A stretch of DNA of 64,000 nt from positions 136,898 to 200,897 of the forward strand of contig CAZKCV010000001.1 in assembly GCA_964551605.1 (NCBI GenBank), read 5' to 3'. A model generated the notes under the pieces. It ran no database searches and was not told the DNA's origin. It saw only the letters and a list, made by a program, of their open reading frames with translations. The number at the start of each line of letters is the position of its first letter. Positions within the stretch are counted from its first letter, which is position 1. Below are positions 41,046-61,860 of this stretch, piece by piece. Source of the stretch: an uncultured Gammaproteobacteria bacterium (GTDB lineage: Bacteria; Patescibacteriota; Microgenomatia; Daviesbacterales; UBA10151). The translations under genes and the position numbers were made by a program.

Positions 41046-41053
41046 AAGATTTT

Positions 41054-41479
41054 TTGTATAATTATTGGTTAATAAATATAAATATGTCACAGATTGAGCG
41101 ATCCACACCCGAATGGTTACAAGCAGTGAGCAGGGTCCGTCGTCAGATAGAGACTTTAACTGTCAACCTGGAAACAGGTCGGGGCGAACTACCGGAGCAT
41201 TGCTTTGCTTTTGCATATGACAAGGAGACAGGGGAAGGATTTGGTGCTTTAATACAGCGCGACTTTGAGTATATTGATGTACGCCATTTGCCAAAAGCTC
41301 CCCCGGAAGTTGTTGTCGATATCTTAATGAAAGTCTTCCCTATAGTGCCTCTTGTCTGTAACCGGCAAATCGCAGAACAACTATCTAAAAACCCCCGATC
41401 TGTCGAATGGCTAAGGGAAGATAATGGCCGGTTAATCAGTAGATCTGAGGGGACAATGATTGTTTACACTCCTCTATAG
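41054..41479 (+). CDS. Hypothetical protein (GC-rich)
   Basis: 141 aa. The true start is probably MSQIER near 41084. Confidence 0.35.
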   Translation: MYNYWLININMSQIERSTPEWLQAVSRVRRQIETLTVNLETGRGELPEHCFAFAYDKETGEGFGALIQRDFEYIDVRHLPKAPPEVVVDILMKVFPIVPLVCNRQIAEQLSKNPRSVEWLREDNGRLISRSEGTMIVYTPL

Positions 41480-41528
41480 TCCCATAGTTTGATTATTGAT
41501 CCTTTTTATATTATAATGTCAGATATAT

Positions 41529-42254
41529 ATGTTTCTGGAAAAATATCTACAGAACCCAAAACTGAGGGAACTCGTGGAAGAACGGGGCTATCAATCAGAT
41601 TTACCCTTAAACATACAGTTTTTACAAAAGGTTGGGCTCATAGAAGCGACCGGAATTATCCAACCAGGCACAAGAATCCTGGAAATCGGTTGCGGCGCAG
41701 GAGCCATGGCTGCGGAATTAACCCGCCGTGGTGGAACTGTAGCTGCACTTGAGTTAAACCTGGATGAACTTAAGAAGGGACGGGCGCGCTACCCGGAGGT
41801 AAATTTTGTCAACGCAGACGCACACACTATCCCATTTCCCGATAGCTTTTTTGACTGGATTGTCAGCTTTGATGCTATGGAACATTTGATTAACCTGCCA
41901 GGATATCTTACTGAAGCCCGGAGGGTGCTTGTTCCGAATGGATTAACAGCGTTTGGAATTCCCAACAAACCGGTTTCACGATTATGGGAATGGGCTAAAG
42001 GCAATTCATTTAAGCTCCAACAGACTTATCACCCCAGTGTGCAAACATACCGGGGTTTACAAAAGCTTTTCAGGGAAGCCGGCTTTGCTAAACCGCAATT
42101 TTTCAAAATGCCCTTCATGGATAGCAAAACATTAGATGAGATACAGATAACCGCCCTCGCCCCTGCCACCGGATTATTACAGCTTATACCCTGGAATCAT
42201 TGGCCGCAACCTCTTTATCCGATGTTTCATGCCGTGGCTCAAAAATCGGATTAA
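41529..42254 (+). CDS. Class I SAM-dependent methyltransferase
   Basis: ILEIGCGAGAMAAEL motif I, with downstream motifs. Confidence 0.75.
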   Translation: MFLEKYLQNPKLRELVEERGYQSDLPLNIQFLQKVGLIEATGIIQPGTRILEIGCGAGAMAAELTRRGGTVAALELNLDELKKGRARYPEVNFVNADAHTIPFPDSFFDWIVSFDAMEHLINLPGYLTEARRVLVPNGLTAFGIPNKPVSRLWEWAKGNSFKLQQTYHPSVQTYRGLQKLFREAGFAKPQFFKMPFMDSKTLDEIQITALAPATGLLQLIPWNHWPQPLYPMFHAVAQKSD

Positions 42255-42453
42255 GTTTTTTAACTATTCTCAAACATGAAGTACAGTATTTTTGGCCCTT
42301 AAACCTGTGAAGATTTGGCCGTTGTATCCTTTTATGAATCGGAGCGCGCAAAGCCCAGGTTCCGCCGGCTCCGGAAGAACCTTTCTTATGCCTGGAGAAA
42401 GCCACTGTATTCTTACCTTTTCCACACCGAAAACAAACTAACATGTGGTACAC
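42184..42453 (-). CDS. rpmB: 50S ribosomal protein L28 (zinc-ribbon type)
   Basis: C-RCGKG...SRH...PNLHRF...CTSCLR pattern. Confidence 0.55.
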   Translation of the reverse strand: MYHMLVCFRCGKGKNTVAFSRHKKGSSGAGGTWALRAPIHKRIQRPNLHRFKGQKYCTSCLRIVKKLNPIFEPRHETSDKEVAANDSRV

Positions 42454-43107
42454 TATAACATAATGGACCCGCAGTTACTAGTTGCCCTATCCCAAGCCGT
42501 CCCGTTAATTGTGCTTCTGTTTTCAGTCATACTTCACGAGGTAATGCATGGCTTTGTGGCCAAAAAATTCGGGGACAATACTGCCGAGCGGGCCGGCAGG
42601 CTAACCTTAAACCCTATCCCCCACATTGACCCGGTCGGCACCATACTCTTACCTCTTGCTTCCCTATATCTGGGAGGGATTCTCTTTGGTTGGGCAAAAC
42701 CAGTGCCGGTAAACCCGTTAAACTTTTCTAATTTAAGAAAGGGGGAGCTGATGGTTTCAGCAGCCGGCATACTGGCTAATTTTGGCCTGGCAGTGGCGGC
42801 AGCTTTAGTTTTTCGCCTACTGGACGGGCTGCCGCAGACATTCCCGGCTCTTTTAGGCGGCATCCTTAGTTTCACGGTATTGATTAACCTGGTCCTGGGG
42901 ATTTTTAATCTGCTGCCAATCCCGCCGCTTGACGGATCAAAAATATTGCTCTCCCAGTTGCCTTCTAAATTGGCAGCCGAGTACCAGAAAATAGAATCCT
43001 ACGGATTCATCATTTTATTATTACTACTTTTTACGGGCATGCTGGGGTTTGTTTTTAATATCGCCAGACTTTTGACCGCTGTTTTACTCGGTACCGGAGG
43101 TTTCTAA
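42445..43107 (+). CDS. Site-2 protease family (M50) membrane metalloprotease
   Basis: LHEVMHG HExxH motif in a TM helix. 220 aa. Confidence 0.75.
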   Translation: MVHYNIMDPQLLVALSQAVPLIVLLFSVILHEVMHGFVAKKFGDNTAERAGRLTLNPIPHIDPVGTILLPLASLYLGGILFGWAKPVPVNPLNFSNLRKGELMVSAAGILANFGLAVAAALVFRLLDGLPQTFPALLGGILSFTVLINLVLGIFNLLPIPPLDGSKILLSQLPSKLAAEYQKIESYGFIILLLLLFTGMLGFVFNIARLLTAVLLGTGGF

Positions 43108-44282
43108 TCCCGGAAAAAATTTCTGATTTGGACTACAAAAATCAAAGTCAAAAGAATTAATACTGCGGAAACAGTAAAGGGTGAGTGAAAATCAAAGTTA
43201 GCAAACAGCCAGCCGCCCAGGATCGGCCCAAAGATCCGGCCTAAGGATTCAAAGGAAGCAAAAATTCCCATGGTAGTCCCCTGTCCCTCCCTGGTTTTTT
43301 TGGAAACCAAGGTAGCCACTGTCGGCCGCGTGATGGATGAACCCACAGTCATCAGCACCATAAAGAGAAGCAGGAAAATACCGTCTTTGGCAAAAGGCAC
43401 CAAAAACAGCCCCACAGCCATCAGCGTCAGGCCCAATACTACCGCCTTGTGTTCACCGATTATTTTCGTCACCCTAAATACTATCAGAGCCTGCATGAAC
43501 ATGGCCAAAAACCCCTGGATGGAGAAAAAATAACCGATATTGGAAACTGATAAATTAAGTTTCTCCAAACCAAAAAGCGGCACTGCCACTTCATTATTAG
43601 TTAGGGCAAAAGACCACAAAAATGTCAGGATAAAAAATGACCCCAGCTCCCCTTTTAAGCCGGAATACATATGTTTTACATTAAAAAGGCCTTCTTTAAG
43701 GGTGAGGATTTCCGCTTTCTTGCTTAAAGATTCAGGCAGGAATTTAAGTACTAACAGAAAATTAATCAGGGCTAAAATGCCGGCTGCAAAAAAAGGGAAG
43801 GATAAATTTATGGAAGACAACACCCCGCCAATTCCGGGACCAAAGATAAAACCGGCTGAAAAAGAGGCTCCCAAATTACCCATGCCTTTAATCCGCTCCT
43901 CCGGAGTAGTCACATCAGAAACATAGGCATGGACAGAAGAAATAGCTGCAGCAGAAAAAATTCCCTGCAAAATCCTGGCTGCAAACAGCCAGAACAAGCT
44001 GTTGGCTAACCCGAACAGCACAAACGAAACACCTAGGCCTAAAAGCGAAATCACAATAATCGGCTTTCGGCCGTACCGATCGGATAGCCTGCCCCAAAGC
44101 GGTGCTAAGAAGAATTGGGCTATGGCATAACTGCCTGCCAAAAGACCCACCGTCCACTCTGTAGCATTAAAATGCCGGGCATAGAAAGGCAGCAGGGGAA
44201 AAATCATCCCAAAGCCAACTATGGTAATAAAAACCGTAGCATAGAGAAAGACAAGTGGCGGCTGTTTTCTAATTTTATCCAT
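43104..44282 (-). CDS. MFS transporter
   Basis: 12 TM helices and the GRLSDRYGRKP motif-A loop. Confidence 0.8.
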   Translation of the reverse strand: MDKIRKQPPLVFLYATVFITIVGFGMIFPLLPFYARHFNATEWTVGLLAGSYAIAQFFLAPLWGRLSDRYGRKPIIVISLLGLGVSFVLFGLANSLFWLFAARILQGIFSAAAISSVHAYVSDVTTPEERIKGMGNLGASFSAGFIFGPGIGGVLSSINLSFPFFAAGILALINFLLVLKFLPESLSKKAEILTLKEGLFNVKHMYSGLKGELGSFFILTFLWSFALTNNEVAVPLFGLEKLNLSVSNIGYFFSIQGFLAMFMQALIVFRVTKIIGEHKAVVLGLTLMAVGLFLVPFAKDGIFLLLFMVLMTVGSSITRPTVATLVSKKTREGQGTTMGIFASFESLGRIFGPILGGWLFANFDFHSPFTVSAVLILLTLIFVVQIRNFFRD

Positions 44283-44302
44283 CCGGATAGTATAACTTAA
44301 AA

Positions 44303-44992
44303 TTGCTTACGATTGACAACCAAAAGATTAATTGCTACCCTACTAGATCAGGAGGCTGCTTACTCTTAAAATTAATGAGTGAGAGAGATAAAAGTAATCT
44401 TTTAGAAATCAGGCGCCTTGTAGCAACAGGTATTTTTGATAATACCATCCTCAAACGGGCCGAAAATATTGTTGCAAAACGCAAAGATGATGGCTTAGGC
44501 TACCGGGAGCTTCAAACTGAACTTACCCTGCGCAGTCTCTCGCTTTACAGCTCTAGAGCCTTGTCTAGAAGAAATGGCGGTCTGGAATTTTTTCTGGCTG
44601 ATTGCCTGCCACCACGCAGCAACCTTAAATTAATTACCAATGGCACCTCTGTTGAGGAATTTTTTGCAACTGCTGTGACCGGGACTCTGGAAAGACTCTG
44701 GGAGGCGGCAAGGGAGAAATTCGACGGCGCTGACAATAAAAAAATAGGGTGGATAGTAGATGAGCAGTGGTGGGGAGTTACGGACAAAACGAGTGGTTAT
44801 TCAGCCAAGGAGTGGCAGATTATGACCAGGTGCGCTACGCTTCAGCGAAATAAAGGCAACCTGGGGACTGTAATCAAAACCATCTGTTACTGTTTTGCCA
44901 CACCCGCCCCTGAAAGGTATCAGGATGCACCAATATGGATTCCTAAGCCGAAACAAAGGAAAGGTCACCACCGCAAGAGATACCTGCCATAA
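44303..44992 (+). CDS. Hypothetical protein (GC-rich)
   Basis: 229 aa, no motif. Basic C-terminal tail. Confidence 0.35.
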   Translation: MLTIDNQKINCYPTRSGGCLLLKLMSERDKSNLLEIRRLVATGIFDNTILKRAENIVAKRKDDGLGYRELQTELTLRSLSLYSSRALSRRNGGLEFFLADCLPPRSNLKLITNGTSVEEFFATAVTGTLERLWEAAREKFDGADNKKIGWIVDEQWWGVTDKTSGYSAKEWQIMTRCATLQRNKGNLGTVIKTICYCFATPAPERYQDAPIWIPKPKQRKGHHRKRYLP

Positions 44993-45000
44993 GGAAAAGT

Positions 45001-45984
45001 ATGGAAAGATCTATCGAAGGATACCATAGAAAATGTGTCCCGCTAAACAAAGGGGGACTTTTTGCAGAAAATCCCTTAACGCCGGCCGAGCAAGACATAC
45101 TGCGCCTGCGCCGGGATGGTGCTAACACTGACAAGGCTATCGCGGAAGAACGCAATTGTTCTCTTTCAACTGTAAAAGGAATTCTTACCAATATTAGAGA
45201 AAAACTGCGTGAAGACGGATTTATAATTCGCAACACTGCTGATGTTGTTTGTATTGCTACCTCAAAAGGTTGGATCTCTCCTGACACAGGCTTGACAGCA
45301 AGAGAAGAAACCTATAAAATCCGTCCCATGACAGAAAATGAGCCTGCTTCATTAATACAGATTAGTGCACAGATTGAAAAAAGAACCAGCTGGCTTGAAC
45401 AGAGACAAAGTATGGTTAACAAACCAGGCGGCCCATATTGGCCGGAACACTTGCGGATTGGGGTTTTGCAGCAAATCCCAGATGCTGATTATTTGGATAA
45501 AGCGGTAGAGTTTGGGCACAGGTTAGAGAGGGCAAGAGATATTATGGTTACAACCACTATTCCCCGCTTAGAAACAAGGATCAAAGAACTTGCCTGTCAA
45601 CGCGCGGTTCTGGCAGAGTCCAGATTGGCGGCGGTAGAAGAGTTCGCTGACGTGTTAGGGAAAGACGCTTTAGATCGGGCCAAAGGAGTAGTTGAAAAAT
45701 GGCGACAGGAGTGTGGTTTAGTCAGTTTACCGCCGCAAACAGTGGAAGAAACTGGAGAAAGTAGCCCTAAACAACATTACACTACCGAGGATGTTGCTGC
45801 GGCAAAGGGGGTTGATCCGAATGATAAACGGGCATTCAATGGTCTTCAAGTCAAGATTTCCGTTCTTTTAAGAACACACCAGATCGCTCCTGAGCGCGGC
45901 AAGCGAAACCGAATCCTTTTTAATCCTGAGCAATTTCAGGAGATGGTAGAACTACTCTCAGGCCGCCCAGCTTCAACAACTTGA
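45001..45984 (+). CDS. LuxR/GerE-type HTH regulator with unknown C-terminal domain
   Basis: LTPAEQDILRL...AIAEERNCSLSTVK N-terminal HTH. Confidence 0.5.
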   Translation: MERSIEGYHRKCVPLNKGGLFAENPLTPAEQDILRLRRDGANTDKAIAEERNCSLSTVKGILTNIREKLREDGFIIRNTADVVCIATSKGWISPDTGLTAREETYKIRPMTENEPASLIQISAQIEKRTSWLEQRQSMVNKPGGPYWPEHLRIGVLQQIPDADYLDKAVEFGHRLERARDIMVTTTIPRLETRIKELACQRAVLAESRLAAVEEFADVLGKDALDRAKGVVEKWRQECGLVSLPPQTVEETGESSPKQHYTTEDVAAAKGVDPNDKRAFNGLQVKISVLLRTHQIAPERGKRNRILFNPEQFQEMVELLSGRPASTT

Positions 45985-46333
45985 CAAACTTTTAAGTTTA
46001 GTACTACAATTAAACTATCCTAAAGGACATTTGTAGATGGCCTAAAGGTGTCCCTACCTAGCACGTTAAAAGCCAAAATATTTTTCTTCACTGATTTGAT
46101 ACTTTACGGGAATCCGGAGTGTGTTAAAGCTTCTGCCCAAACACCAGGATACCCACCTTAGCATTGCTGAGGAAGAAATTTGGCTATCGGCTATCGTAGG
46201 GAGGAATTATTTTCTTTCTGACCTGATTGATAATTCTAAAAATTCATTAAGATGGGCTAAAAAAGTCCATTTGCTTCTGTTATTTAATTTTCCACTAACT
46301 TTTTATATCTAAACTTGATAAAATATACCTTGT

Positions 46334-46408
46334 GCCGAAGTAGCTCAGCTGGCCTAGAGCGCCACTTTTGTAAAGTGGATGTCGTGGGTTCAAATCCCAC
46401 CTTCGGCT
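46334..46408 (+). tRNA. tRNA-Thr (anticodon UGU)
   Basis: Cloverleaf with 7-bp acceptor gccgaag/cttcggc, anticodon loop tTTGTaa, T-loop ttcaaat. The CCA end is not encoded. Confidence 0.7.
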
Positions 46409-46414
46409 CAGAAC

Positions 46415-46489
46415 GCCGACATAGCTTAGTGGTAAAGCACTTCATTGGTAATGAAGAGACCGTGGGTTCGATCCCCACTGTCGGCTCCA
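46415..46489 (+). tRNA. tRNA-Thr (anticodon GGU)
   Basis: Acceptor gccgaca/tgtcggc, anticodon loop ttGGTaa, T-arm gtggg-ttcgatc-cccac, encoded CCA. Confidence 0.7.
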
Positions 46490-46532: not shown

Positions 46533-46805
46533 ATGAGTAAATGGGAAGATTTAGAAAAAGAATTATTATCCGATCCAAAGACAAAAAAGGAGTATGACAA
46601 ACTTGCTCCCCGTTACGCAGTAATCTCGGCTCTAATTGATGCCCGTACCAAAAAGGGATTAACTCAAAAAGAACTTGCCCAAAAGATTGGTACCAAACAA
46701 TCTGCTATAGCAAGACTGGAATCAGGTAGCGTTAACCCCTCACTCGAGTTTCTGCAAAAAATCGCCCAAGTCATGGGGTATAAATTAACTATCCAACTCC
46801 GATAG
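46533..46805 (+). CDS. HTH-XRE antitoxin-like regulator (HigA-like family)
   Basis: MSKWEDLEKELLSDPKTKKEY...KGLTQKELA...TKQSAIARLESG..PSLEFLQKIAQVMG. Confidence 0.7.
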   Translation: MSKWEDLEKELLSDPKTKKEYDKLAPRYAVISALIDARTKKGLTQKELAQKIGTKQSAIARLESGSVNPSLEFLQKIAQVMGYKLTIQLR

Positions 46806-46826: not shown

Positions 46827-47738
46827 TTACGGGGTTTCTACTTCTACCTGGATATATTTTACTTCCGGCACTTTACTTTTAATTTCTGCCTTGATCCTAT
46901 CCATGATTTTTTCAATATCAGTAGTAGTTAAATTCCTTTTTAAGTTTACTTCCGCATTTACCAGCAGCTTTTCCGAGCCTATATGAATGGTTTTTAGCTC
47001 CAGTACTTTCTTAACTTCCGGGGCCATCATAATAGCCCGGCGGATTTTATTTTCCACCTCCTCAGAAGCGCTTTGCCCAATAATCAACTCCCTGATCGGC
47101 ATCATCAGCAACACTCCAAAGACGGCCAAAAGTCCGCCGATCACCATGGCTCCCAGCCCATCAAACAACAGATTCCCGGTAATTTGATAAAAGACTAAAG
47201 CTGTCAAACCTGATACTGCAGCCAGGGCACCCATCAAATCCAGCACAAAGGCAGTTTTTGTTTCAATTAAAGGAGAATTAACAAAGGCTTGCCTGATTTT
47301 TAAGATACTTTTACCCTTTAATAATCTTCTGGAACTTAAGGATAAAGCATAACCATTGGTCATGGTGCTTAAAACCAAGATGCCGAAAGCCAGGTAGATA
47401 TTGTTGATCGGCAATGGGCTAAGAAACCTCTGCCAACCAAAATAGAACGAGAGTGTAGAAGTTACGCCTAAAATCAGTACGCTGGCCAGCATGGTCCAGA
47501 AATACAGTTCCAAACCATATCCAAACGGGTGCTTTTTATCCGAAGGCTTACGGGAACGGACTAAACCAATTAGCAAAAAGCCGGCTGCTGCTAAATCTGC
47601 CAAACCCTGCAGTGTTTCAGCTATCATGACCACGCTGCCGGAAAGAATAGCCACCGTAAAATTGGTTAAAACATCCAGCAGGTCAACCAAAAAGGAAGTA
47701 ATTATGACTCTACCGGCAGAAGGGGCTGATTGCATCAC
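46827..47738 (-). CDS. Cation diffusion facilitator family transporter
   Basis: 6 TM helices plus a C-terminal cytoplasmic domain. Confidence 0.8.
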   Translation of the reverse strand: MMQSAPSAGRVIITSFLVDLLDVLTNFTVAILSGSVVMIAETLQGLADLAAAGFLLIGLVRSRKPSDKKHPFGYGLELYFWTMLASVLILGVTSTLSFYFGWQRFLSPLPINNIYLAFGILVLSTMTNGYALSLSSRRLLKGKSILKIRQAFVNSPLIETKTAFVLDLMGALAAVSGLTALVFYQITGNLLFDGLGAMVIGGLLAVFGVLLMMPIRELIIGQSASEEVENKIRRAIMMAPEVKKVLELKTIHIGSEKLLVNAEVNLKRNLTTTDIEKIMDRIKAEIKSKVPEVKYIQVEVETP

Positions 47739-47946
47739 TTAAAATTATAATATATAATCCCCTGATATGGCGAAAAAGGGGAATAGACAATTATTTATCT
47801 TCCAGTGTTCTGTTTGCAAAAACAGGAATTATACTGCCACAAAAAACACGGTCAATATAAAAGAAAAACTTACTTTGAGTAAATTCTGTAAACACTGCCG
47901 CAAGACCACGGAACACAAAGAAATCAAACTCTAGCCATTTACTTCA

Positions 47947-47980
47947 TGTCATTCTGAGCGTAACGAAGAATCTCAAGATT
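47947..47980. repeat. Family B element (partial) upstream of the HTH/endonuclease-like gene
   Basis: gtcattctgagcgtaacgaagaatctcaagatt. Confidence 0.5.
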
Positions 47981-48052: not shown

Positions 48053-48715
48053 ATGGCTTACAAAATGGAACTTAAGGGGAGGGCTATAAACTTAAGAGAA
48101 CAGGGTTATTCCATCAAAGAAATTGCAAAACTTCTCAGTATTGCAAAAAGCACTTCATCTGCATGGCTCAGTAATATTATGCTGTCCCCTAAGGCACAGG
48201 AAAGATTAAAGTCTCGTAGAATTTTAGGACAATACAAATCTATAGAAATCGCACGTAAAAAAAGGGTTGCGCAACAGCTAATATTAACAAATGAGGCTAA
48301 CCAACTTTTATCGAAAGTCTCAATCAATCCAGCAATATGTAAATTATGTTGCGCCCTACTCTTTTGGTGTGAAGGTGCTAAAACCAATACTCTAGTGAAA
48401 TTCACAAATTCAGACCCATCTCTAATAAAATTATTTCTTGATTTACTAAGAACAGGGTTTAAAATTGATGAATCAAAACTAAGAATCCTTATGCATTTAC
48501 ATGAATATCATGTGGAAGAGAAGCAAAAAATATTTTGGAGAGAGATCACTAAAATTCCCCTAGAACAATTCCACAGATCATATCTAAAACCTCACACAGG
48601 GAAACGGAAACATCCGAATTATCCTGGCTGCATTTCTGTAACATATTACAATGCTAAAGTTGCAAAAGAGTTAGCTACAATCTACAATACTTTTGTACAA
48701 AGGGGCGTCCGTTAA
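48053..48715 (+). CDS. HTH-domain protein, possible homing-endonuclease-like. Its 3' end overlaps tRNA-Trp.
   Basis: N-terminal HTH LREQGYSIKEIAKLL. C-terminal region is weakly LAGLIDADG-like (ALLFWCEGAK...LIKLFLDLL). The last 5 codons lie inside the tRNA acceptor stem. Confidence 0.4.
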   Translation: MAYKMELKGRAINLREQGYSIKEIAKLLSIAKSTSSAWLSNIMLSPKAQERLKSRRILGQYKSIEIARKKRVAQQLILTNEANQLLSKVSINPAICKLCCALLFWCEGAKTNTLVKFTNSDPSLIKLFLDLLRTGFKIDESKLRILMHLHEYHVEEKQKIFWREITKIPLEQFHRSYLKPHTGKRKHPNYPGCISVTYYNAKVAKELATIYNTFVQRGVR

Positions 48716-48772
48716 CTGGTAAACGGTTTCTCTCCAAAAGAAATCCTGCAGGTTCGAGTCCTGCCGCCCCTG
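48701..48772 (+). tRNA. tRNA-Trp (anticodon CCA)
   Basis: Acceptor aggggcg/cgcccct, anticodon stem tttct/agaaa with loop ctCCAaa, T-arm gcagg-ttcgagt-cctgc. Confidence 0.7.
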
Positions 48773-48785
48773 CATTATTATGAAT

Positions 48786-49175
48786 TCATTTAGCGGTGAG
48801 TTTATGGAGATCTTTGTCAAAAGTGAAAAGTTCTGCTTTTTCAATCTCAGCTTTTGAAAATAAAAAAGAATCAACAAAACTAACGTCTTCTTTTTCATAA
48901 AGAGTAAGCGCTTTGCTAAAAATATCCCGTGATTCAATATTTATATATTTTGTAGCAACTAACGGTTTTAGCTGTTTAATCACTACGGATTTATTATAAA
49001 GATAATATTTACGTAGGATGAAATCTAATTCAAAAATAGTCGCCTGGGCAACACAAAGCTTAATCTCATTACGCTTTGCTCTATTTAGTAACTGTTCACA
49101 GGCTTCTTTCTGTTGGGGAATATCATTGAGGAGAAAATGGAGTAAGACATTTGTGTCAACAATTATTGACTTCAT
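48786..49175 (-). CDS. vapC: PIN-domain toxin VapC
   Basis: IIVDTNVLL N-terminus and conserved acidic residues. 4-nt overlap with the antitoxin gene. Confidence 0.8.
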   Translation of the reverse strand: MKSIIVDTNVLLHFLLNDIPQQKEACEQLLNRAKRNEIKLCVAQATIFELDFILRKYYLYNKSVVIKQLKPLVATKYINIESRDIFSKALTLYEKEDVSFVDSFLFSKAEIEKAELFTFDKDLHKLTAK

Positions 49176-54117: not shown

Positions 54118-54233
54118 TTATAGCCGTATACGCAGTTTTGGCAAAAGAGAAAAAATGTCCTTTGATCACAGCTGATGAAAAGTTTGTCGGTGCTGTCAAA
54201 TTATCCTTTGTCAAAAACCTGCAGGATTATTAA
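54114..54233 (+). pseudogene. PIN-domain toxin C-terminal fragment
   Basis: 39 codons. AVLAKEKKCPLITADEKF resembles the C-terminal strand/helix of VapC. Too short to be functional. Confidence 0.4.
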
Positions 54234-54234: not shown

Positions 54235-54528
54235 TTATGGAAAGTCCGGTTTGGGGTTTAGTTTCTGTCTGAGAGCTTCGCTTTCCGCCTTATCTTGCGC
54301 TGTTTGAACTTCTTGAGCTTTAACTCTTTGGTCTCTTAAATTCATCAATCCAGAACTTTCTTGTGATGGGATGCCGGCTGAACTGGCACCCAAATCGCGG
54401 TTATCTAAGTCTGCTAAAGCACCGGCGACTGCTTTTATTCCGAATGCGCTCGCTAATATAAACAAAACTACAAATCCCGCTCTAATAAGTTTTTCTTTTG
54501 TGTCCGGTCCAGGTTTCAATCTTTCCAT
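54235..54528 (-). CDS. Small membrane-anchored hypothetical protein
   Basis: 97 aa, one TM. Confidence 0.35.
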   Translation of the reverse strand: MERLKPGPDTKEKLIRAGFVVLFILASAFGIKAVAGALADLDNRDLGASSAGIPSQESSGLMNLRDQRVKAQEVQTAQDKAESEALRQKLNPKPDFP

Positions 54529-54567: not shown

Positions 54568-55815
54568 TCAATCGCTATATTTAACTCCGAACTTATTGGA
54601 AAACCTGTTGGCAGATCCAAGAACCGTATTTACTTGGGTAGCATCACCATTCCATTTAGCCAAGGATTTCCTCCTAAAATCAACTGTTACCGGTTCCTTT
54701 CCCACTGTGTATCCTATCCGCCAATCCCCGTTGCCTAAATTTTCGCTTTGGGCTATATGCACTTCTGAACCGATGGCTCCCCAGGTCACATGAAACAAAA
54801 TAAAGTCCTCTTTGACGTCCTTTAATAAATTTATCATCTCCAACGCTTTCCCAGGCATAAATTGTGGTCCGATGGCTCCTCCACTGATTGTGCCAGGAAC
54901 ATCCCGAGGCCATGTGGAGCCCGGAATGTTAGCAGCCATATATTTTAACCCCCCTGTCATCTTCTCTTGTATTCGGCAAATTTCCTCAAGCTGTTCTTTG
55001 GCACCACTGAAAACATCGTAATTAATTTGAGATAAAGCCGGTAAAGTACCAATATTGGTAAATCCGACTGTCTCATACATCATAAGCTTTGCTAAACCAC
55101 CTACATTCATCATTAAATCTTCCGCTCTCGGATTGCCTCTTAACCTATCTGGTATATCCAACGGATTTTCAGGATCAAAGAGATCCGGCCTAAACTTTTC
55201 CCCAGATTTATCAAGCAGCTTTTGGATAATATCTCTGGCTCTTTTGTAGGCATCAAGAGAAATTCCCATTACCTCTGGGTAAATACCCTCCTCCTTACAC
55301 CAAGCCAGGAGCTCCTCGGGCACCTTAGCCAAACGTTTATCAACCCCTGATTGCCGAATTTCATAACGCTTATTTAGCAGGTCAATCCTCAAATCAGGAT
55401 CAACTACTACCCACAAACCCCGGTCTACTTGTTCCAAAGTCTTAGCTCTTTCGGAATAAACCTGCTCAGTCTTTTCCCTTTCCGGTGTGCCTAGCGGTAA
55501 ACTAAGAGTCTTATTAAGAAAGTCTGTATCGGAAAGAGTCTCCAGGCCGGTTGGTTTTTCCTGTGTTTGAACTTGTTTTGGAGACGTTATGGCAGTAGGT
55601 TTTTGGGCTTCAGGAACTCTAGGATTCTTTCCCTCCTTAGAGCCAGCTTGTATAGCGGTTGTTAAAACAAGTCCCGCACCAGCCATCCCGAGTAACCCCA
55701 CAAGTCCCCTTCGGCTTATTCTGCCCCGTTCGTCAAATGATCTCTTCGGCAAAGCGGCTTTGGGAACAGACTGGGGGCGGTCCGGACTATCCTTCATAAG
55801 ACTACGATACCACAA
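54568..55815 (-). CDS. Secreted hypothetical protein with Tat-like signal
   Basis: SRRGLVGLLGMAGAGLV twin-arginine-like N-terminus. No catalytic motif recognised. Confidence 0.45.
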   Translation of the reverse strand: MWYRSLMKDSPDRPQSVPKAALPKRSFDERGRISRRGLVGLLGMAGAGLVLTTAIQAGSKEGKNPRVPEAQKPTAITSPKQVQTQEKPTGLETLSDTDFLNKTLSLPLGTPEREKTEQVYSERAKTLEQVDRGLWVVVDPDLRIDLLNKRYEIRQSGVDKRLAKVPEELLAWCKEEGIYPEVMGISLDAYKRARDIIQKLLDKSGEKFRPDLFDPENPLDIPDRLRGNPRAEDLMMNVGGLAKLMMYETVGFTNIGTLPALSQINYDVFSGAKEQLEEICRIQEKMTGGLKYMAANIPGSTWPRDVPGTISGGAIGPQFMPGKALEMINLLKDVKEDFILFHVTWGAIGSEVHIAQSENLGNGDWRIGYTVGKEPVTVDFRRKSLAKWNGDATQVNTVLGSANRFSNKFGVKYSD

Positions 55816-56017
55816 TCTTCCCTCTTGTGGATAATAAATAAATCTTTTACAATGCGGCTAGAATCTGTCTGCTGTCCTTTAAGCTAAAAAATTTATGCCC
55901 GGGGGACGAAAGAAAAAAACTACTGTTATACCACTGCTATCCCTTATTCTTTCTTTGGTTAAAATTATCCTGGTTAAAATAGGTAACGTGCCGCTTCGTG
56001 TGCTTCAATTTATAATT

Positions 56018-56105
56018 TACAATGTACAATGTACAATTCAGATCCTTCCAAAAATTCTACATTCTACATTCTACATTCTACATTTTGTGCGGCACAGCCG
56101 CACAA
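56018..56105 (+). promoter_or_regulatory. Heptamer tandem repeats (tacaatg)x2-3 and (ctacatt)x4 plus a 9-bp-stem hairpin overlapping the PBP1A GTG start
   Basis: ttataatttacaatgtacaatgtacaat ... ctacatt x4 (56058-56085), then ttgtgcggc-aca-gccgcacaa (56085-56105). Confidence 0.5.
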
Positions 56106-58159
56106 GAGGCCGGCCCAAAAAATTCCGCTTATCTTCCCGGGTTAAAATTGCCCTGGCAGGAGGCCTTTTTGCCGCTTTTGTTTTCTCCTATACCTTTTTT
56201 ATCCTGGCAGCTGCCTATCAGTTGCCCACTCCGACCAAGCTGACAGCTCCCAATAAATCCCTTACCACCGAAGTCTATGACCGAAACGGCATCCTGTTGT
56301 ACCGGTTTTACGAGGGCAGCAACCGCACCCTGGTTAACTTAAGTGATATTCCGGACAACATGATTCGGGCCACTATTGCCATTGAAGACCAGAATTTCTA
56401 CCACCATATCGGCATTGACATCCCGGCCATCATCCGGGCCGTTTATAGAAACGCCACCACCGGCAGCAGGGAAGGAGCTTCTACTATCACTCAGCAGCTA
56501 ATTAAAAACTCACTGCTGACCCCGGAGCGGACTTATGTCCGGAAAATCCGGGAAATGACCCTGGCGCTTTGGACAGAACGGATTTATTCCAAAGAAGAAA
56601 TCCTGCAGATGTATTTTAATGAAACCTCCTACGGCGGGGTTAATGTCGGCATCGGGGCCGCCGCCCGCACTTATTTCGGCAAAATCCCCAAGGAGCTAAC
56701 CCTGGCGGAGAGTGCTTACCTGGCCGGGCTGCCGGCTTCCCCCACCCAGTTTTCCCCTTACGGCTCGCGGTCAGACCTGGCTAAAATGCGGCAAAAACAG
56801 GTCCTGGACCGGATGGTGGAGGAAAAATATATTACCAAAGCTAAAGCTGATGAAGCCTTTACCCAAAAATTAAACATTAAACCGCTGGCAAGTAACATCC
56901 TGGCCCCCCATTTTGTCTTTTATGTCAGGGATTTACTGATAGAGCGGTTTGGCGCCCGGCTGGTTTCACAGGGAGGCTTAAAGATTTATACCAGCTTAGA
57001 TTTGGGACTGCAGGAAAAAGTAGAGGAAATTGTCAGAAAAGAGGTTGACCAGTTAAAAGGCTTAAATGTCACCAATGGCGCGGCCATGGTGATGGACAGC
57101 CAAACCGGGCAGATCCTGGCTATGGTGGGCTCCCGGGATTACCACTATCCCGGCTACGGCAATTACAATGCCACCTTAGCGCTTCGCCAGCCCGGCTCTT
57201 CCATCAAACCGGTCACTTATGCAGTGGCCCTGTCCAAAGGCTACAACCCCGGCAGCATTTTATTGGATACGCCGGTAGTATTTAAGGATGAGTGGGGCAA
57301 TGCCTATGCGCCGGTTAACTATGACGGCCGCTACCGGGGACCGGTCACCTTAAGGCAAGCTTTGGGCAGCTCACTTAATACCCCGGCAGTCAAAGTCCTG
57401 GCCGCAGTCGGCATTGATGAGTTTGCCAAAACTGCCCGGGATTTAGGTCTTACCACGATTGATAACCCGGAACGTTTCGGCCTGGCTTTGACATTAGGCG
57501 CAGCTGAAGTCAAGATGATTGAGATGATGGGCATGTACGGAACCTTTGCCGCAAACGGCCGCTACCGCGAACCAACCGGCATCCTGAAAGTAACCAACTC
57601 AGATGGCCAAACCCTGGAAGAATACCGGGACCACCCGCGCCAGGCCATTGACCCGGAAATTGCCTATACCATTACCAACATTCTGGCTGATGATGAGGCC
57701 AGGAAATTGGCTTTTGGCCCTAAATCCCTGCTGTATATTCCGGGTTATGAGGTACCGGTTAAAACCGGCACTTCGGATTGGAAAAGGGATAATGTCACTT
57801 ACGGCTATACCCCCAAATATGTAGTCGGAGCCTGGGTGGGCAATCCGGATAATCAACCGGCCAACCAGGCACTGACCTCCGGTATCACCGGGGCGGCCCC
57901 GATCTGGAATAAAATCATGCATGAGCTTTTAGACGGAACAACACCCCTAGCTTTTCAGAAGCCGGACGGAGTGGCTGATATTACAGTCTCCGGAAAAAAG
58001 GACCTGGAACTTAAGAAGAAAGTCCCTAAAGAAATGGTCCGGATTAAAAAGGATAAAGACCAGGTTATTTTCCAGGATAAATACTCCACCTATGCCACTT
58101 CCGCCGCCCAACCGGATCAGCAGGCTAATCAGGCTATTCCAGAACAACCCAACCTCTGA
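56087..58159 (+). CDS. Penicillin-binding protein 1A (GT51 transglycosylase plus transpeptidase), GC-rich
   Basis: Transglycosylase motif RATIAIEDQNFYHHIGID and transpeptidase motifs SSIKP, SLN, KTGT. Start placed at the in-frame GTG 56087 before the canonical basic-TM N-terminus. Confidence 0.8.
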   Translation: MRHSRTRGRPKKFRLSSRVKIALAGGLFAAFVFSYTFFILAAAYQLPTPTKLTAPNKSLTTEVYDRNGILLYRFYEGSNRTLVNLSDIPDNMIRATIAIEDQNFYHHIGIDIPAIIRAVYRNATTGSREGASTITQQLIKNSLLTPERTYVRKIREMTLALWTERIYSKEEILQMYFNETSYGGVNVGIGAAARTYFGKIPKELTLAESAYLAGLPASPTQFSPYGSRSDLAKMRQKQVLDRMVEEKYITKAKADEAFTQKLNIKPLASNILAPHFVFYVRDLLIERFGARLVSQGGLKIYTSLDLGLQEKVEEIVRKEVDQLKGLNVTNGAAMVMDSQTGQILAMVGSRDYHYPGYGNYNATLALRQPGSSIKPVTYAVALSKGYNPGSILLDTPVVFKDEWGNAYAPVNYDGRYRGPVTLRQALGSSLNTPAVKVLAAVGIDEFAKTARDLGLTTIDNPERFGLALTLGAAEVKMIEMMGMYGTFAANGRYREPTGILKVTNSDGQTLEEYRDHPRQAIDPEIAYTITNILADDEARKLAFGPKSLLYIPGYEVPVKTGTSDWKRDNVTYGYTPKYVVGAWVGNPDNQPANQALTSGITGAAPIWNKIMHELLDGTTPLAFQKPDGVADITVSGKKDLELKKKVPKEMVRIKKDKDQVIFQDKYSTYATSAAQPDQQANQAIPEQPNL

Positions 58160-58165
58160 GGTCTT

Positions 58166-61100
58166 TTAAGATGGAATAACCAATACGGCATTGTTCATGG
58201 GAGTATAACGCTCAAAATAAGAAATATCGCCCCCCAGACTGTCGCTGTATTCGTAAGGGTTAAAGCTTTGGGGTATAAAAATCTGGACATCTTTTGTCTC
58301 ATAGCGGAATCCGTTTTTCTTGGCTTCAGTTGACAAAAACGGGATGGTATGCGAATGATCCGAACCGCTTCCCACCATTTGTTCACCGCTGACCACCAAG
58401 ACCGCTCCGGTTGCCCGGGCTTTAGCCAAGGCCATCCGAACCACTAAATTATATACCTGCGATATTTCAGACGTGGTGTAAATAGGTTCCAATAAAATAG
58501 CCGGTTTTTGGCCGCCTTCTACTTGAAGGTTAGTCAATTTAATCACGGAGCGTGCCAAAATTTCTTTATTGTTACCTTCTACATTAATAACCCGCTTATT
58601 GGCATCGGCAACGTAAGCAGGCAAACAGTAATTATGGCTTCCTGCCCTCCAGCTTTGGCAGGTTTCTCTAGGTTCAACACCGACGTTTAAAAGAACAAAA
58701 GGGTCATCGCTGTCATAAGCTTTCAACTCCTCAACTCTAGCCAATTCTTTTTGGGTCGTTAGAACCTGTGATATCTGATCCAAATCTTGTTGGGCCTGCT
58801 CAAGGTTGCCCAAGGAATTTAAGGCATTTTTTGTTCTGCTGATAATTTCTAAAATTTTAACCGGTTGCAACTGGTCCGGAGAAAGAGATTCCAACCCGAT
58901 CATCCCCTCTAAAACTTGTAGCTCCAAATCAACTGAGTGCTTCTTCATACCCAGCTCTTTTTTTGCTTCTATATCCACTGGTCCATCCTTAAGGTCTTTG
59001 ATTAATTGACTGCGCGTCAGTTGCAATACCCTTATCCTGTCTTCGGAAAAATCCAGCCTGTAAACTTCTGCAATATGGGCTTTAGATTCCTGGACAATTC
59101 TTTTAATAGCCTCAACCGCGCCTTTTCTTGCTTCTTCTTGCTTTTGCATTTTTATTGTTACCCGCAACTCTTCAACAGGTTCTAACCACGCCTGCCTTTT
59201 GTCCTCTGGAAGAGCAGCAAGTTGGGCTACTGACGTTGGCAGGTTATTTCTCCACTCTTTAAAATCACCCAAAATAATGTGCCTGCCAATCTCCCGGGCC
59301 GCATGTTTGGTATTATCCTCTCTTTTTTCGTATTGAGCTAAAAGAGCCGGAATTATTTCAAAAGTCTTATTTTCCAAAAGATAAGGAAGCCGTTCCCGCA
59401 AGGATGGTAACTCTTCCTCGGAAATTTCCATTTTTTCTTTGGCTGCCTGAACAGCCTTTTCTTTAAGATCGGCAATAATTTCATTCAAGCTTCCCCTTAC
59501 TTCAAAACCAAAAACGCCGAAAGCATCCAAAGAACGCATCCATTGGAAGATTTCCTTGATTCGCGCGGGATCTTCTCTGGTCCCGCGGGCCACATTTAGG
59601 ATGGACCCCAAAATTCCCCCGCCGTTTTCCTTGGTAGTGAGGAATAAAAGTCCTTCTGCAAAGCTGGCGCGGGCAAAAAAACCTTTTTGCAAGTCTTTTG
59701 ATTGATAAATTAAGGCAAGTTTTTCTAAAGATTCAGGCTTTAAAGATAATCCTTCGCGGGCAATCAAACTGGGAAAGGAAAAATAGTTTTGATCTTTCGG
59801 GCTAACTAAGGCATTAAAAAGAAGCGGGTTAGTCATCCTCCAGTCAACCAATTTACTCTTGGCCATTGTTGTTACGACTTCGGGAAGGTTTTGAAGAAGC
59901 AGTTGGTCGATTTGTTCTGTTTGGCTCCACTCACCAAAGTTTCCTAAAAAATAAGCCTGTAAAGTTCTTTCGTCAAGTTTTACTCCTGAAGTCTCGGCTA
60001 TTCTAGCAGCCAGTTTTACAAGTTCCCCGTAAGCCAGATGGCTTTCAGCGCTTTGAATACAGAGTGCCATAGTATAGCCATCGTTACCTTGAAGGGCTTG
60101 CTTTATTACCGGAGCCGAATTTATAAACCATTCATTAACAACACGCCTCTCCAAAAGAGGCAAGCCTGCTAGAACTTCACTTAGTTCTTCTTTAGAAAGA
60201 GGTTCCTTGACAATAGCAGAAATAGTTTTTACCACTACCGCACTGGTATGGCCTGACCCAAACATCCTTAGGTGTTTAATTAAACCAGGAATGGCCCGGG
60301 GGTCTTTCAGTGAATAAAAAACACTGGCAACTCCTGAACCATCCCAGCTTTCACGGCCGCCCTCATATAGCTGCTCAAAAAACCTTTTTTCAACTACATC
60401 ATAAAGCGTGTGCGTCTGGTCCAGGGTCGCATCAATCCTATCCCACTCTTCCCATTGTTCAGAATTAAAACTCCGCCGTACACTCTCAATTGCCCCATTA
60501 AGATAATAATCGTCAGAAGCAGTATCAACAATCTTTGGAAAATTCGGCAGATAGACTCCATCCCTGGATAAACTATAGGAATCATGATAAAAAGGATTAA
60601 CCAATGCTTGGTATTGGTTTCGCAAAGCAGGATCTGCGGTTACTACTGCCAATTCTCTTAAACTTTTAAGAAGATCGTTCGGCTTACCGGAAACTTCAGG
60701 ATCAGTTTCTTTGTATTTGATCGGTAAATTTGTTCTGGCCAGTGCGTCTTCTTCAAAAAGCCTCGCCCCTTCTCTTGCTATCCAGTATTCCAGGATGTTT
60801 TGGGAAAGCCTGGAAGTCTTTTGTGTTAACTTCAACAATCCAGCGCTTTTTTCTTTGTCTTGAGGAGAGATGATTTGGTTTAAGAAAAGTTCAAGAAGAT
60901 ATAGGTCTTTAAAGTCTTTTTCCGCGCTTGCCAGTTGCTCCTCTATTTCATCGGACGTAAAATTGGCATCTAATGCATTTTTCTTTTCTTCAAACATACC
61001 GCCCAAAAGTGCAGTCAGCTTCTCTTCATTCACCCGATATCCTAAGCCTGCAGGAGAAACCATATCCTGGGGAACAAGATTATGTCTTCGGAAGACTTCG

Positions 61101-61243
61101 TTCATTTCATCACGGTTGACTAATTGCGGGTGTGACTCAATATTTCTGTATCCAGCAATTATCCCGTTCAATCTTGCCAGATTGTTGGTCAGTGGAGGTT
61201 GTTCTTGCTCGTGATTAGCACCATCAAAACCTGCTTCAGCCAT
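58166..61243 (-). CDS. Large hypothetical cytoplasmic protein (1025 aa)
   Basis: Long uninterrupted ORF, predominantly helical, no TM and no recognisable catalytic motif. Confidence 0.5.
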   Translation of the reverse strand: MAEAGFDGANHEQEQPPLTNNLARLNGIIAGYRNIESHPQLVNRDEMNEVFRRHNLVPQDMVSPAGLGYRVNEEKLTALLGGMFEEKKNALDANFTSDEIEEQLASAEKDFKDLYLLELFLNQIISPQDKEKSAGLLKLTQKTSRLSQNILEYWIAREGARLFEEDALARTNLPIKYKETDPEVSGKPNDLLKSLRELAVVTADPALRNQYQALVNPFYHDSYSLSRDGVYLPNFPKIVDTASDDYYLNGAIESVRRSFNSEQWEEWDRIDATLDQTHTLYDVVEKRFFEQLYEGGRESWDGSGVASVFYSLKDPRAIPGLIKHLRMFGSGHTSAVVVKTISAIVKEPLSKEELSEVLAGLPLLERRVVNEWFINSAPVIKQALQGNDGYTMALCIQSAESHLAYGELVKLAARIAETSGVKLDERTLQAYFLGNFGEWSQTEQIDQLLLQNLPEVVTTMAKSKLVDWRMTNPLLFNALVSPKDQNYFSFPSLIAREGLSLKPESLEKLALIYQSKDLQKGFFARASFAEGLLFLTTKENGGGILGSILNVARGTREDPARIKEIFQWMRSLDAFGVFGFEVRGSLNEIIADLKEKAVQAAKEKMEISEEELPSLRERLPYLLENKTFEIIPALLAQYEKREDNTKHAAREIGRHIILGDFKEWRNNLPTSVAQLAALPEDKRQAWLEPVEELRVTIKMQKQEEARKGAVEAIKRIVQESKAHIAEVYRLDFSEDRIRVLQLTRSQLIKDLKDGPVDIEAKKELGMKKHSVDLELQVLEGMIGLESLSPDQLQPVKILEIISRTKNALNSLGNLEQAQQDLDQISQVLTTQKELARVEELKAYDSDDPFVLLNVGVEPRETCQSWRAGSHNYCLPAYVADANKRVINVEGNNKEILARSVIKLTNLQVEGGQKPAILLEPIYTTSEISQVYNLVVRMALAKARATGAVLVVSGEQMVGSGSDHSHTIPFLSTEAKKNGFRYETKDVQIFIPQSFNPYEYSDSLGGDISYFERYTPMNNAVLVIPS

Positions 61244-61293
61244 ATCTTAACCATAGCAAAACCATTTACTAAAAACAAACTTTCAGGGAAATC

Positions 61294-61689
61294 TTATCTT
61301 TCCAGCACAACCCAACCTCTGAGGTCTGTTTTTTTGATTTTAATAGGAGAAGTAATAAAGCGGGATGAATCTCCGATGAAAATCAAGGTCGCATATCTAC
61401 AATAAGACCTATTAGACCAATAAGTCTTATCAACAGCCAAATCTCGCCCGTATTCTTTCTTAATCCGGGCCAGGTCTTCTCCCGAAAGGCCGTCATAAAA
61501 GATCACTTTTTTTACCCGAAACTGGCCGATTATTTCTTTGCCGGAAGGCTTTATATAAACCAAATCTCCCCGGGAAATTAAGCCGAAAGGCGGATTTTTG
61601 ACCCGGGAAAAACGGGACTCAATGGTTTTTTTACCGGATAATATCCACTCCCCCGCTTCCCCCTTAAAAATAGCCAGATGTCTTTTCAT
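61294..61689 (-). CDS. ASCH (PUA-like) domain protein
   Basis: ILSGKKTIESRF...GDLVYIK matches the ASCH beta-barrel N-terminal pattern. Confidence 0.5.
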   Translation of the reverse strand: MKRHLAIFKGEAGEWILSGKKTIESRFSRVKNPPFGLISRGDLVYIKPSGKEIIGQFRVKKVIFYDGLSGEDLARIKKEYGRDLAVDKTYWSNRSYCRYATLIFIGDSSRFITSPIKIKKTDLRGWVVLER

Positions 61690-61860
61690 TAAAGTAACTT
61701 TCTTCTGTCATCCCCCGATTAAATCGGGGGATCCATACAAATAATTGGTATAGATTCCTGCTTTCGCAGGAATGACAACGGAATTTTTCATTATTGCAAT
61801 TATACTACTACCTTTGTTATACTTGATACGTTCATGTAAACTGAACGTATCTTGACAAAT

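Follow-up and report, generated by a model that had tools for sequence, protein, structure and literature searches.

Gene order and junction cargo in the stretched tRNA-Thr–rpmG–tRNA-Trp–secE neighbourhood of a Candidatus Daviesbacteria genome

Backbone genes and their order in related genomes

The DNA analysed here (the window) is a stretch of 64,000 nucleotides (nt) of contig CAZKCV010000001.1, from a Candidatus Daviesbacteria genome (candidate phyla radiation (CPR)/Microgenomates), and our subject is the 20.6 kb of it between about 41 kb and secE, in which two tRNA-Thr genes, rpmG and tRNA-Trp are followed at a distance by secE, nusG and rplK. An earlier reading of the letters alone (the sequence-only reading) had taken this region for an acquired accessory island bracketed by tRNA genes. 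tRNA genes were called with ARAGORN, and all sizeable open reading frames (ORFs) between 39 and 64 kb were scanned with Pfam, NCBIfam and PHROG. A scan of genome collections with NusG gave 80 loci, the nearest being metagenome-assembled genomes of Candidatus Daviesbacteria; for downstream synteny the window proteins were compared by tblastn with 33 NusG-anchored Daviesbacteria loci, and for upstream synteny we used rpmG-anchored loci, among which L167, L168 and L169 document the order. A metagenome scan with the cation diffusion facilitator (CDF) protein of the region was of little use for synteny, as the only close relative it returned was L081, beside three distant relatives. The genes that form the conserved backbone are as follows.

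42184–42453, minus: small Cys-rich rpmB-like ORF, positional ortholog of the gene for ribosomal protein L28
42445–43107, plus: M50-family membrane protease (Pfam Peptidase_M50)
46334–46409, plus: tRNA-Thr(tgt) (ARAGORN)
46415–46489, plus: tRNA-Thr(ggt) (ARAGORN)
47767–47934, plus: rpmG, ribosomal protein L33 (Pfam Ribosomal_L33, E=6.8e-16)
48701–48773, plus: tRNA-Trp(cca) (ARAGORN)
49493–50215, minus: secreted coiled-coil protein (cc240)
50240–50959, plus: VanW-like protein (Pfam VanW, at threshold)
51575–52909, plus: GH1 glycosidase (Pfam Glyco_hydro_1, E=3e-77)
52980–53957, plus: EamA-like transporter (EamA match sub-threshold)
55895–58159, plus: class A penicillin-binding protein PBP1A (Pfam Transgly, E=3e-59; Transpeptidase, E=6e-27)
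61294–61689, minus: ASCH-domain protein (Pfam ASCH)
61859–63452, plus: secE (start at 61859), nusG and rplK (Pfam)

The three tRNA genes have exactly the identities given to them in the sequence-only reading, and secE, which it had put at 61.9 kb, starts at 61859 and is followed by nusG and rplK. It had overlooked rpmG between the tRNA-Thr pair and tRNA-Trp, and with rpmG at 47767–47934 the canonical order is therefore kept, merely stretched. As reconstructed in PMC8046335, the canonical cluster is tRNA-Thr-Tyr-Gly-Thr-tufB; rpmG-tRNA-Trp-secE-nusG-rplK-rplA. The tRNA-Thr(tgt)/tRNA-Thr(ggt) pair of the window is a remnant of the tufB-operon tRNA cluster; the same two genes also lie upstream of rpmG in L167 and L169, and L170 has the variant Thr(tgt)-Tyr ... 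Thr(ggt)-rpmG. rpmG is 73–95% identical across relatives, tRNA-Trp comes after it in all relatives whose locus reaches that far, and secE-nusG-rplK is kept in 80 of the 80 NusG-anchored loci.

That the canonical tRNA–secE neighbourhood is interrupted, as the sequence-only reading had claimed, is borne out: tRNA-Trp is not contiguous with secE here, at least 12 genes on both strands being spread across the 13.1 kb that follow it, as against 108 nt in L052, which has a compact Thr-Tyr-Thr ... rpmG-Trp-secE cluster. The distance from tRNA-Trp to secE is 6.0–9.4 kb in 12 Daviesbacteria loci, 5.6–8.9 kb in Woesebacteria and other Microgenomates, and 4.4 kb in L170, where the cargo is different (Inositol_P, GT2 and NTP_transferase genes); in L175, from Levybacteria, the neighbours are the same and the middle segment is inverted. 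From these distances across lineages it follows that the split between tRNA-Trp and secE is older than Daviesbacteria. The fixed cargo between the two genes differs by lineage and is vertically inherited within Daviesbacteria.

Downstream the order rpmG - tRNA-Trp - cc240(−) - VanW - GH1 - EamA - PBP1A - ASCH(−) - secE - nusG - rplK was recovered on the same strands and at 46–92% identity in every Daviesbacteria locus long enough, and is present in at least 20 species representatives. Gene by gene, cc240 is 46–87% identical at the same position and on the same strand in at least 16 relatives, the VanW-like protein is 61–79% identical in relatives, GH1 and EamA are adjacent in at least 22 relatives (and also lie upstream of secE in L048), PBP1A occupies the same position in 28 loci (52–66% identity), and the ASCH gene is 61–74% identical and directly upstream of secE in at least 26 relatives.

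Upstream the order in L167–L169 is MreB - VIT1 - Wzy_C - u86 - def - fmt - rpmB-like(−) - M50 - (MFS) - tRNA-Thr(tgt) - tRNA-Thr(ggt) - rpmG (MFS, major facilitator superfamily), which agrees with the window from 33 kb on. In these three loci the M50 gene is 69–70% identical at the same position, and an ORF 75–81% identical to the rpmB-like ORF occupies the same place. In L170 and L175 the corresponding gene matches Pfam Ribosomal_L28; the window copy has no significant hidden Markov model match, is recognised by no L28 profile and is accepted only as a positional ortholog. Gaps between successive backbone genes run from −20 nt to 5.7 kb, so that variation is limited to the junctions.

NusG of the window (62070–62987) is 305 amino acids (aa) long because of an acidic Glu/Pro/Thr-rich N-terminal extension of about 130 aa. 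Its length is variable in Daviesbacteria: L166 and L170 encode a protein of 182–202 aa, and L004 and L013 give a matched region longer than that of the window. An exact-match search with the NusG of the window returned no record.

Accessory slots and base composition

Of the 20.6 kb, some 10 kb is accessory DNA, and this lies in at least six separate slots. The sequence-only reading of the region as accessory thus holds for about half of it, which is lineage-specific and includes toxin–antitoxin (TA) modules, and fails in so far as a single block was meant. The slot inserts, and the patchy genes that are common to only some relatives (MFS, PaaX and HTH220), are listed below; HTH stands for helix–turn–helix.

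Slot 1, 41054–42254, plus: u141, a 141-aa ORF, and a class I S-adenosylmethionine (SAM) methyltransferase (Pfam Methyltransf_11, E=1.7e-20)
Slot 2, 44303–45984, plus: u229, a 229-aa ORF, and a 327-aa GerE-like protein, GerE327 (Pfam)
Slot 3, 46533–46805, plus: orphan HigA-like HTH_3 antitoxin (Pfam)
Slot 3, 46827–47738, minus: CDF cation-efflux transporter (Pfam)
Slot 4, vapB 49172–49435 and vapC 48786–49175, minus: vapBC (PIN, E=6e-13; MazE_antitoxin, E=1e-7)
Slot 5, 53929–54233, plus: degraded vapBC (62-aa antitoxin-like ORF and 39-aa ORF)
Slot 5, 54235–54528, minus: u97, a 97-aa ORF
Slot 5, 54568–55815, minus: u415, predicted secreted protein of 415 aa
Slot 6, 58166–61243, minus: u1025, 1025 aa, predicted helical solenoid with a C-terminal GNAT-fold domain
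Patchy, 43104–44282, minus: MFS transporter (Pfam MFS_1, E=6e-63)
Patchy, 48053–48715, plus: HTH220, 220 aa, N-terminal transposase/resolvase-type HTH (Pfam HTH_7/HTH_23)
Patchy, 50995–51501, minus: PaaX-like regulator with a PaaX_M/Cas2-like domain (Pfam PaaX_M, E=9e-21)

The vapBC, VanW, PaaX, GH1, CDF, PBP1A, ASCH, methyltransferase, M50 and MFS genes named in the sequence-only reading all find support in Pfam, and its LuxR-like gene is a GerE/sigma70_r4-like gene by Pfam; for its EamA gene the Pfam match stays below threshold.

Slot 1 lies between fmt and the rpmB-like ORF, and in L167, L168 and L169 fmt directly precedes that ORF; no repeat above chance flanks the insert. Slot 2 lies just upstream of tRNA-Thr(tgt). 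GerE327 has an N-terminal GerE/sigma-70 region 4 HTH; neither it nor u229 has a homolog in any related locus compared, no phage or viral-contig relatives of GerE327 were found, and the slot 2 genes have tetranucleotide correlations of 0.53–0.55, the lowest of the long genes apart from HTH220. Slot 3 lies between tRNA-Thr(ggt) and rpmG, where the gap is about 25–60 nt in L167, L168 and L175. Its CDF gene is common to L007 and L081 only. The HigA homolog in L012 (57%) adjoins a Gp49/HigB toxin gene which is absent in the window, and the earlier description of the antitoxin as an orphan is supported by this missing partner.

The vapBC pair of slot 4 (GC 32–36%) begins 12 nt after tRNA-Trp, its two genes overlap by 4 nt, and it has no homolog in any related locus compared. 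In relatives the slot after tRNA-Trp measures 5 nt to 2.7 kb and carries HigBA, PIN, GyrI-like or Apyc1-like cargo; in L167 a match to the Anti-Pycsar protein Apyc1/metallo-beta-lactamase fold (11013–11738) stands where the window has vapBC. The degraded vapBC that the sequence-only reading had noticed does exist, at 53929–54233 in slot 5; its 39-aa ORF matches just the last 22, C-terminal positions of the PIN profile (E=0.07). Of its neighbours, u97 is common to L004 only, and for u415 neither a homolog in any locus nor a family match turned up. The impression given by the string GAIGPQFMP that u415 is an MltB-like lytic transglycosylase was rejected, as Pfam, NCBIfam and PDB lend it no support. 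As for the patchy genes, an MFS gene follows M50 in L168 (57% identity) and is absent from L167 and L169, and a PaaX gene occupies the same slot in L001, L004, L010 and L169 and another slot in L007 and L027, and is absent elsewhere. Slot cargo in relatives is diverse, comprising Fic, fn3 and dockerin/metalloprotease-like proteins as well as the HigBA, PIN, GyrI-like and Apyc1-like genes already mentioned. A search for flanking repeats around nine candidate inserts rose above shuffled sequences for u1025 only.

Some further features of the junctions were noted. The 3′-terminal 71 nt of the rpmB-like ORF are shared with the inserted methyltransferase gene, and the insertion seems to have changed the C-terminus of the rpmB-like protein. 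A 23-nt palindrome, TACGTTCA-N7-TGAACGTA, occurs twice in the window, right after VanW/PaaX (50971–50993) and 10 nt upstream of secE (61827–61849), and not elsewhere in 2.3 Mb of related loci, except that L013 has a similar one, TACGTTAA-N7-TTAACGTA, some 50 nt before secE (9589–9611). The palindrome resembles an operator, and the neighbouring PaaX-like regulator might be the protein that binds it. A dispersed repeat of about 24 nt, GTCATTCTGAGCG(A/T)A(G/A)CGAAGAAT, is found at 47948–47971, 52917–52985, 37784–37807 and 21590–21613, with copies right after rpmG and right after GH1; the post-GH1 copy and an inverted partner make up a palindromic element of about 70 nt, and in L003 the motif is also present between GH1 and EamA. 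The GH1/EamA slot of L166 holds a 23S_rRNA_IVP (four-helix-bundle) gene instead. To the left of the region a radical-SAM gene (35420–36853, minus; 28.5% GC at third codon positions) and a 101-aa HTH-like ORF (39362–39667, minus) are absent at the syntenic position in L167–L169, and slot insertion therefore continues left of 41 kb.

Base composition had been one of the main arguments for an island, and the values on which it rested were not reproduced. The whole window has 42.2% GC and the whole region 43.4%, against 41.5% to its left. The stretch 41050–46333, supposed to have about 50% GC against about 40% elsewhere, has 44.5%; PBP1A, supposed to have 55–58%, has 50.0% with a peak of 53.6% in 500-bp windows; and the coiled-coil gene, put at about 60%, has 50.2%. 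The strongest anomaly, overlooked previously, is a low-GC patch (33–35%) at 47.75–49.5 kb that contains HTH220, tRNA-Trp and vapBC. Nor do PBP1A and cc240 stand as evidence of foreign composition, both being conserved syntenic orthologs that are GC-richer than their loci in relatives too (by means of 2.4 points for PBP1A, which reaches 7.8 in the window, and 1.9 points for cc240, with at most 5.4 for the two in relatives). Descent of PBP1A from a GC-rich donor as a xenolog was rejected, since, with GH1 as the yardstick, it diverges from its relatives to a degree usual in the clade.

Tetranucleotide z-scores of 3-kb windows correlate with those of the whole window at a mean r of 0.50 in the region and 0.57 to its left. 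The minima at 47–51, 53.5–56.5 and 58.5–61.5 kb coincide with window-specific inserts, and an equally low value was obtained at 9–12 kb, over genes for a core aminoacyl-tRNA synthetase, a tRNA-binding protein and RseP. The sequence-only reading had named a uniform signature as something that would speak against it: the region is slightly less typical than the rest, which favours that reading, but windows over core genes deviate equally. Deviations in composition map to individual small inserts.

As the source is a metagenome-assembled genome, and as 500-bp windows span 33% to 54% GC, a chimeric assembly or a binning artefact that wrongly joined contigs of different organisms was also considered. 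However, each backbone-gene junction recurs in many independent assemblies from different studies, and an independent Logan assembly (L161, SRR12113383) carries ASCH-u1025-PBP1A with both junctions at 100% identity. This is to our mind the least credible of all the explanations discussed here.

A single acquired genomic island (or two adjoining ones), recently integrated at tRNA-Thr and tRNA-Trp, would agree with the presence of tRNA genes, two TA loci and an orphan antitoxin, with the slightly less typical tetranucleotide signature and with the slot right after tRNA-Trp, whose TA or defence-type cargo varies by genome. Against it, the backbone order is kept, at 50–90% amino-acid identity, in the genomes of more than 20 species, the very observation that the sequence-only reading had said would tell against an island; the GC-rich genes are syntenic orthologs; and conserved genes divide the accessory DNA into at least six slots. 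In related genomes the backbone is present at the same site, only the small slot inserts being variable. As the sequence-only reading had itself remarked, there is no integrase in any ORF scanned between 39 and 64 kb, and the sole recombination-like domain in these scans is the transposase/resolvase-type HTH of HTH220. The 24-nt 3′ end of tRNA-Trp, with up to three mismatches allowed, matches only itself within the window, and 14–22-mers of all three tRNAs gave only chance matches, to the anticodon arm. With no integrase, no tRNA 3′-end repeat and accessory DNA in so many slots, the tRNA-bracketed island had to be given up as a description of the region, and such an integration we consider highly improbable.

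The conserved order, the presence/absence pattern of the inserts and the lack of an integrase and of att-like repeats are matters of observation, and the region is very probably the Daviesbacteria form of the ancient tufB-operon/secE-operon neighbourhood, with a vertically inherited backbone and small insertions at junction hotspots. Four points weigh against this interpretation. Upstream synteny is documented by three loci only; L081, whose CDF protein is 78% identical, differs upstream of tRNA-Thr; L165 and L166 carry unrelated DNA directly upstream of rpmG, so that the backbone's upstream half is not common to all relatives; and the GC excess of PBP1A and cc240, about 8 points here against no more than about 5.5 in relatives, is partly unexplained. 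L165 (1–9100) and L166 (1–9900) are close relatives, with rpmG 87–89% identical and no tRNA-Thr upstream of it; in its place L165 has reverse transcriptase (RVT_1), AAA_5 and SNase genes, and L166 has GIY-YIG and DUF3800 genes and one for an unassigned 999-aa protein. The junction upstream of rpmG in these two loci is either a synteny breakpoint or a defence-type island.

On the interpretation as a neighbourhood with junction hotspots, the tufB/secE cluster of Microgenomates would owe its extra length to blocks of ordinary genes, for the cell envelope and for housekeeping, that today are inherited vertically, and the backbone junctions would act as insertion/deletion hotspots at which each genome has its own small cargo. 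Such cargo may have arrived by separate small events of illegitimate or homology-assisted recombination and may have been lost again by deletion. The u1025 gene would represent one insertion that duplicated 31 nt and that could be reversed by recombination between the repeats.

The u1025 insert and the HTH220 gene

The insert that carries u1025 is flanked by the two copies of a direct repeat:

58137–58167, plus: left copy of the 31-nt direct repeat, at the end of PBP1A
61300–61330, plus: right copy of the 31-nt direct repeat, at the 3′ end of ASCH

The copies are 29/31 identical (score 25, as against a maximum of 11 in shuffled sequences) and delimit an insert of 3.13 kb which consists of one gene and a 56-nt leader. 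The convergent PBP1A and ASCH genes of relatives share 17–20 nt at their ends, and the repeat sequence is single-copy there. The two copies of the window encode C-termini, the left one that of PBP1A and the right one that of ASCH; as the overlap of the convergent 3′ ends was duplicated, both genes are intact. In one other species (L009) exact 17-nt repeats enclose a decayed remnant. This runs in the same direction as u1025, abuts PBP1A and comes from a homolog of u1025 (55% identity), of which it covers residues 910–1022. The inner junction GTCTTT(T)AA beside the u1025 stop is common to the window and L009. The event is therefore old, the same junction being found with a decayed remnant. L009 is not the nearest relative of the window, and its own nearest relative, L010, has an uninterrupted PBP1A/ASCH overlap; the inner junction that the window and L009 share points to a single old event, after which there were precise losses mediated by the repeats, or else homologous exchange. 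A 1036-aa ORF in the same slot of L019 was examined as a possible relative of u1025 and rejected as unrelated.

A word-indexed search found only three full-length relatives of u1025, two of them non-self and situated in other contexts (beside polA and beside a polysaccharide-synthesis gene). An exhaustive profile search raised the number to 345, which share mainly a C-terminal module of about 225 aa that usually ends proteins of 750–2000 aa and in which G855, P858, C862, Q863, L874 and Y922 are invariant. Among 25 family members Pfam has no match on this module, and one of the 25 carries an extra, separate Acetyltransf_1 domain; no phage relatives of u1025 were found. The AlphaFold model, made with a 62-sequence alignment (pLDDT 91, pTM 0.80), predicts a helical solenoid (residues 20–835) and an alpha/beta domain (839–1024), and in this model the C-terminal domain has the alpha/beta fold of GNAT proteins. 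PDB sequence profiles gave no match to the module, so that profiles provide no link to GNATs, and read by eye the loop after beta-strand 911–918 has no Q/R-x-x-G-x-G/A pattern. The family is undescribed, and its module would most likely be an acyltransferase-like or substrate-binding unit on a large scaffold.

It might be thought that u1025 is an autonomous, site-specific single-gene mobile element that targets the PBP1A/ASCH overlap, makes the 31-nt duplication itself and spreads between Daviesbacteria lineages, as the insert is discrete (3.13 kb, one gene and its leader within 31-nt repeats), the same site is occupied in L009 and the closest homologs lie in unrelated contexts. However, a predicted solenoid with a GNAT fold offers no nuclease, recombinase or transposase domain, the homolog in L162 has no flanking repeats within the short flanks at hand, the inner junction common to the window and L009 fits one ancestral event, and the slot carries unrelated cargo in other species. 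Autonomous mobility is in our view doubtful in the extreme, although not so far-fetched as the island.

HTH220 is attached to tRNA-Trp in an unusual way. Its last five codons lie inside the tRNA gene, the C-terminus ...RGVR being encoded by the acceptor stem, and in all copies inspected (L009, L013, L167, L170, L171, L172 and L175) the gene ends 10–15 nt inside the 5′ end of tRNA-Trp, an overlap kept also in L172, where rpmG is not a neighbour. HTH220 precedes tRNA-Trp in the window and in L009, L013, L167, L168, L170, L172 and L175 and is absent from L001, L003, L005, L030, L165, L166 and L169. The family comprises at least 582 proteins of 220–223 aa with at least 50% identity from Daviesbacteria, Shapirobacteria and Levybacteria. 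The C-terminal domain, with invariant C106-E107-G108, H148, H150, H153 and C193, belongs to no recognisable family, and with 35% GC and a tetranucleotide r of 0.24 HTH220 is the least typical long gene in the window. Its wide and uniform conservation argues against a recent mobile insertion; 50–60% identity and a fixed length across classes would also fit vertical inheritance with losses. Identification as a LAGLIDADG homing endonuclease was considered and found no support in profiles (PF14528 at E=0.089 in one of five members; PDB profiles match the HTH only). In the Shapirobacteria loci L172–L174 (6001–9517) a gene for a class Ib aminoacyl-tRNA synthetase of the TrpRS/TyrRS type (Pfam tRNA-synt_1b) follows about 1.8 kb downstream of HTH220 and tRNA-Trp, and a tyrosine recombinase gene is also near.

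The boldest reading concerns both genes. u1025 would be a new kind of single-gene cassette, from an undescribed family of about 350 with an atypical Cys/Gln-bearing GNAT-fold domain, that targets the PBP1A/ASCH overlap, duplicates 31 nt while sparing both genes and is exchanged or precisely excised among Daviesbacteria; HTH220, a second and separate oddity, is joined to tRNA-Trp at its 5′ end across the Microgenomates and would hint at an unrecognised tRNA-linked function. We think this unlikely, if marginally less so than autonomous mobility of u1025.

Significance and comparison with known systems

The arrangement is already known, being the normal, publicly documented gene order of Daviesbacteria, and the island claim is for that reason without importance; conserved lineage-specific synteny with small independent insertions is ordinary comparative-genomics behaviour. 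What the region adds is that the tRNA-rpmG-secE-nusG cluster, ultra-conserved elsewhere, can in CPR/Microgenomates take up kilobases of unrelated genes and keep them as fixed parts, and that its junctions behave as dense insertion hotspots. u1025 is a clean example, in which a 31-nt duplication preserves two overlapping convergent genes, and its family, now with a confident predicted solenoid and GNAT-fold model, is a minor lead, as is the HTH gene that overlaps tRNA-Trp. The case also calls for caution, as tRNA genes, TA modules and GC wobble are no proof of an island in small, AT-leaning CPR genomes.

Like integrative islands that target tRNA genes, the window has tRNAs that adjoin variable DNA, TA modules and some inserts of atypical composition. 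It differs in having no integrase or att-like repeat, in that the DNA beside the tRNAs is mostly conserved backbone and in that its variable pieces are of 0.6–3 kb each, distributed across many junctions. Chromosomal integration hotspots, a general concept of comparative genomics, are variable slots between conserved core genes. As in these, the flanking core genes of the window are fixed and the cargo of the slots differs by species and is rich in TA, defence-type and secreted-protein genes; the window is, however, unusually dense, with at least six junctions in 20 kb, and these lie inside what is elsewhere a most conserved operon cluster.

The intact vapBC pair conforms to type II TA systems of the VapBC kind, an AbrB/MazE-type antitoxin gene overlapping a PIN toxin gene by 4 nt and a second, decayed copy being present in the window as well; nothing about it is unusual, and it is genome-specific among the loci compared. 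The C-terminal domain predicted for u1025 departs from the GNAT superfamily in its identity (10% or less, with no Pfam or GNAT profile match on the module), in the invariant residues of its family (C862, Q863, E919, Y922, K941, Y999 and D1001), which differ from the usual acetyl-CoA loop, and in its fusion to a helical solenoid of about 830 aa. With the tufB/secE cluster the window shares tRNA-Thr, tRNA-Thr, rpmG, tRNA-Trp, secE, nusG and rplK on one strand. Unlike that cluster it has no tuf, tRNA-Tyr or tRNA-Gly here, 1.3 kb separate tRNA-Thr from rpmG and 13.1 kb separate tRNA-Trp from secE, and the genes inserted in it are themselves conserved across Daviesbacteria.

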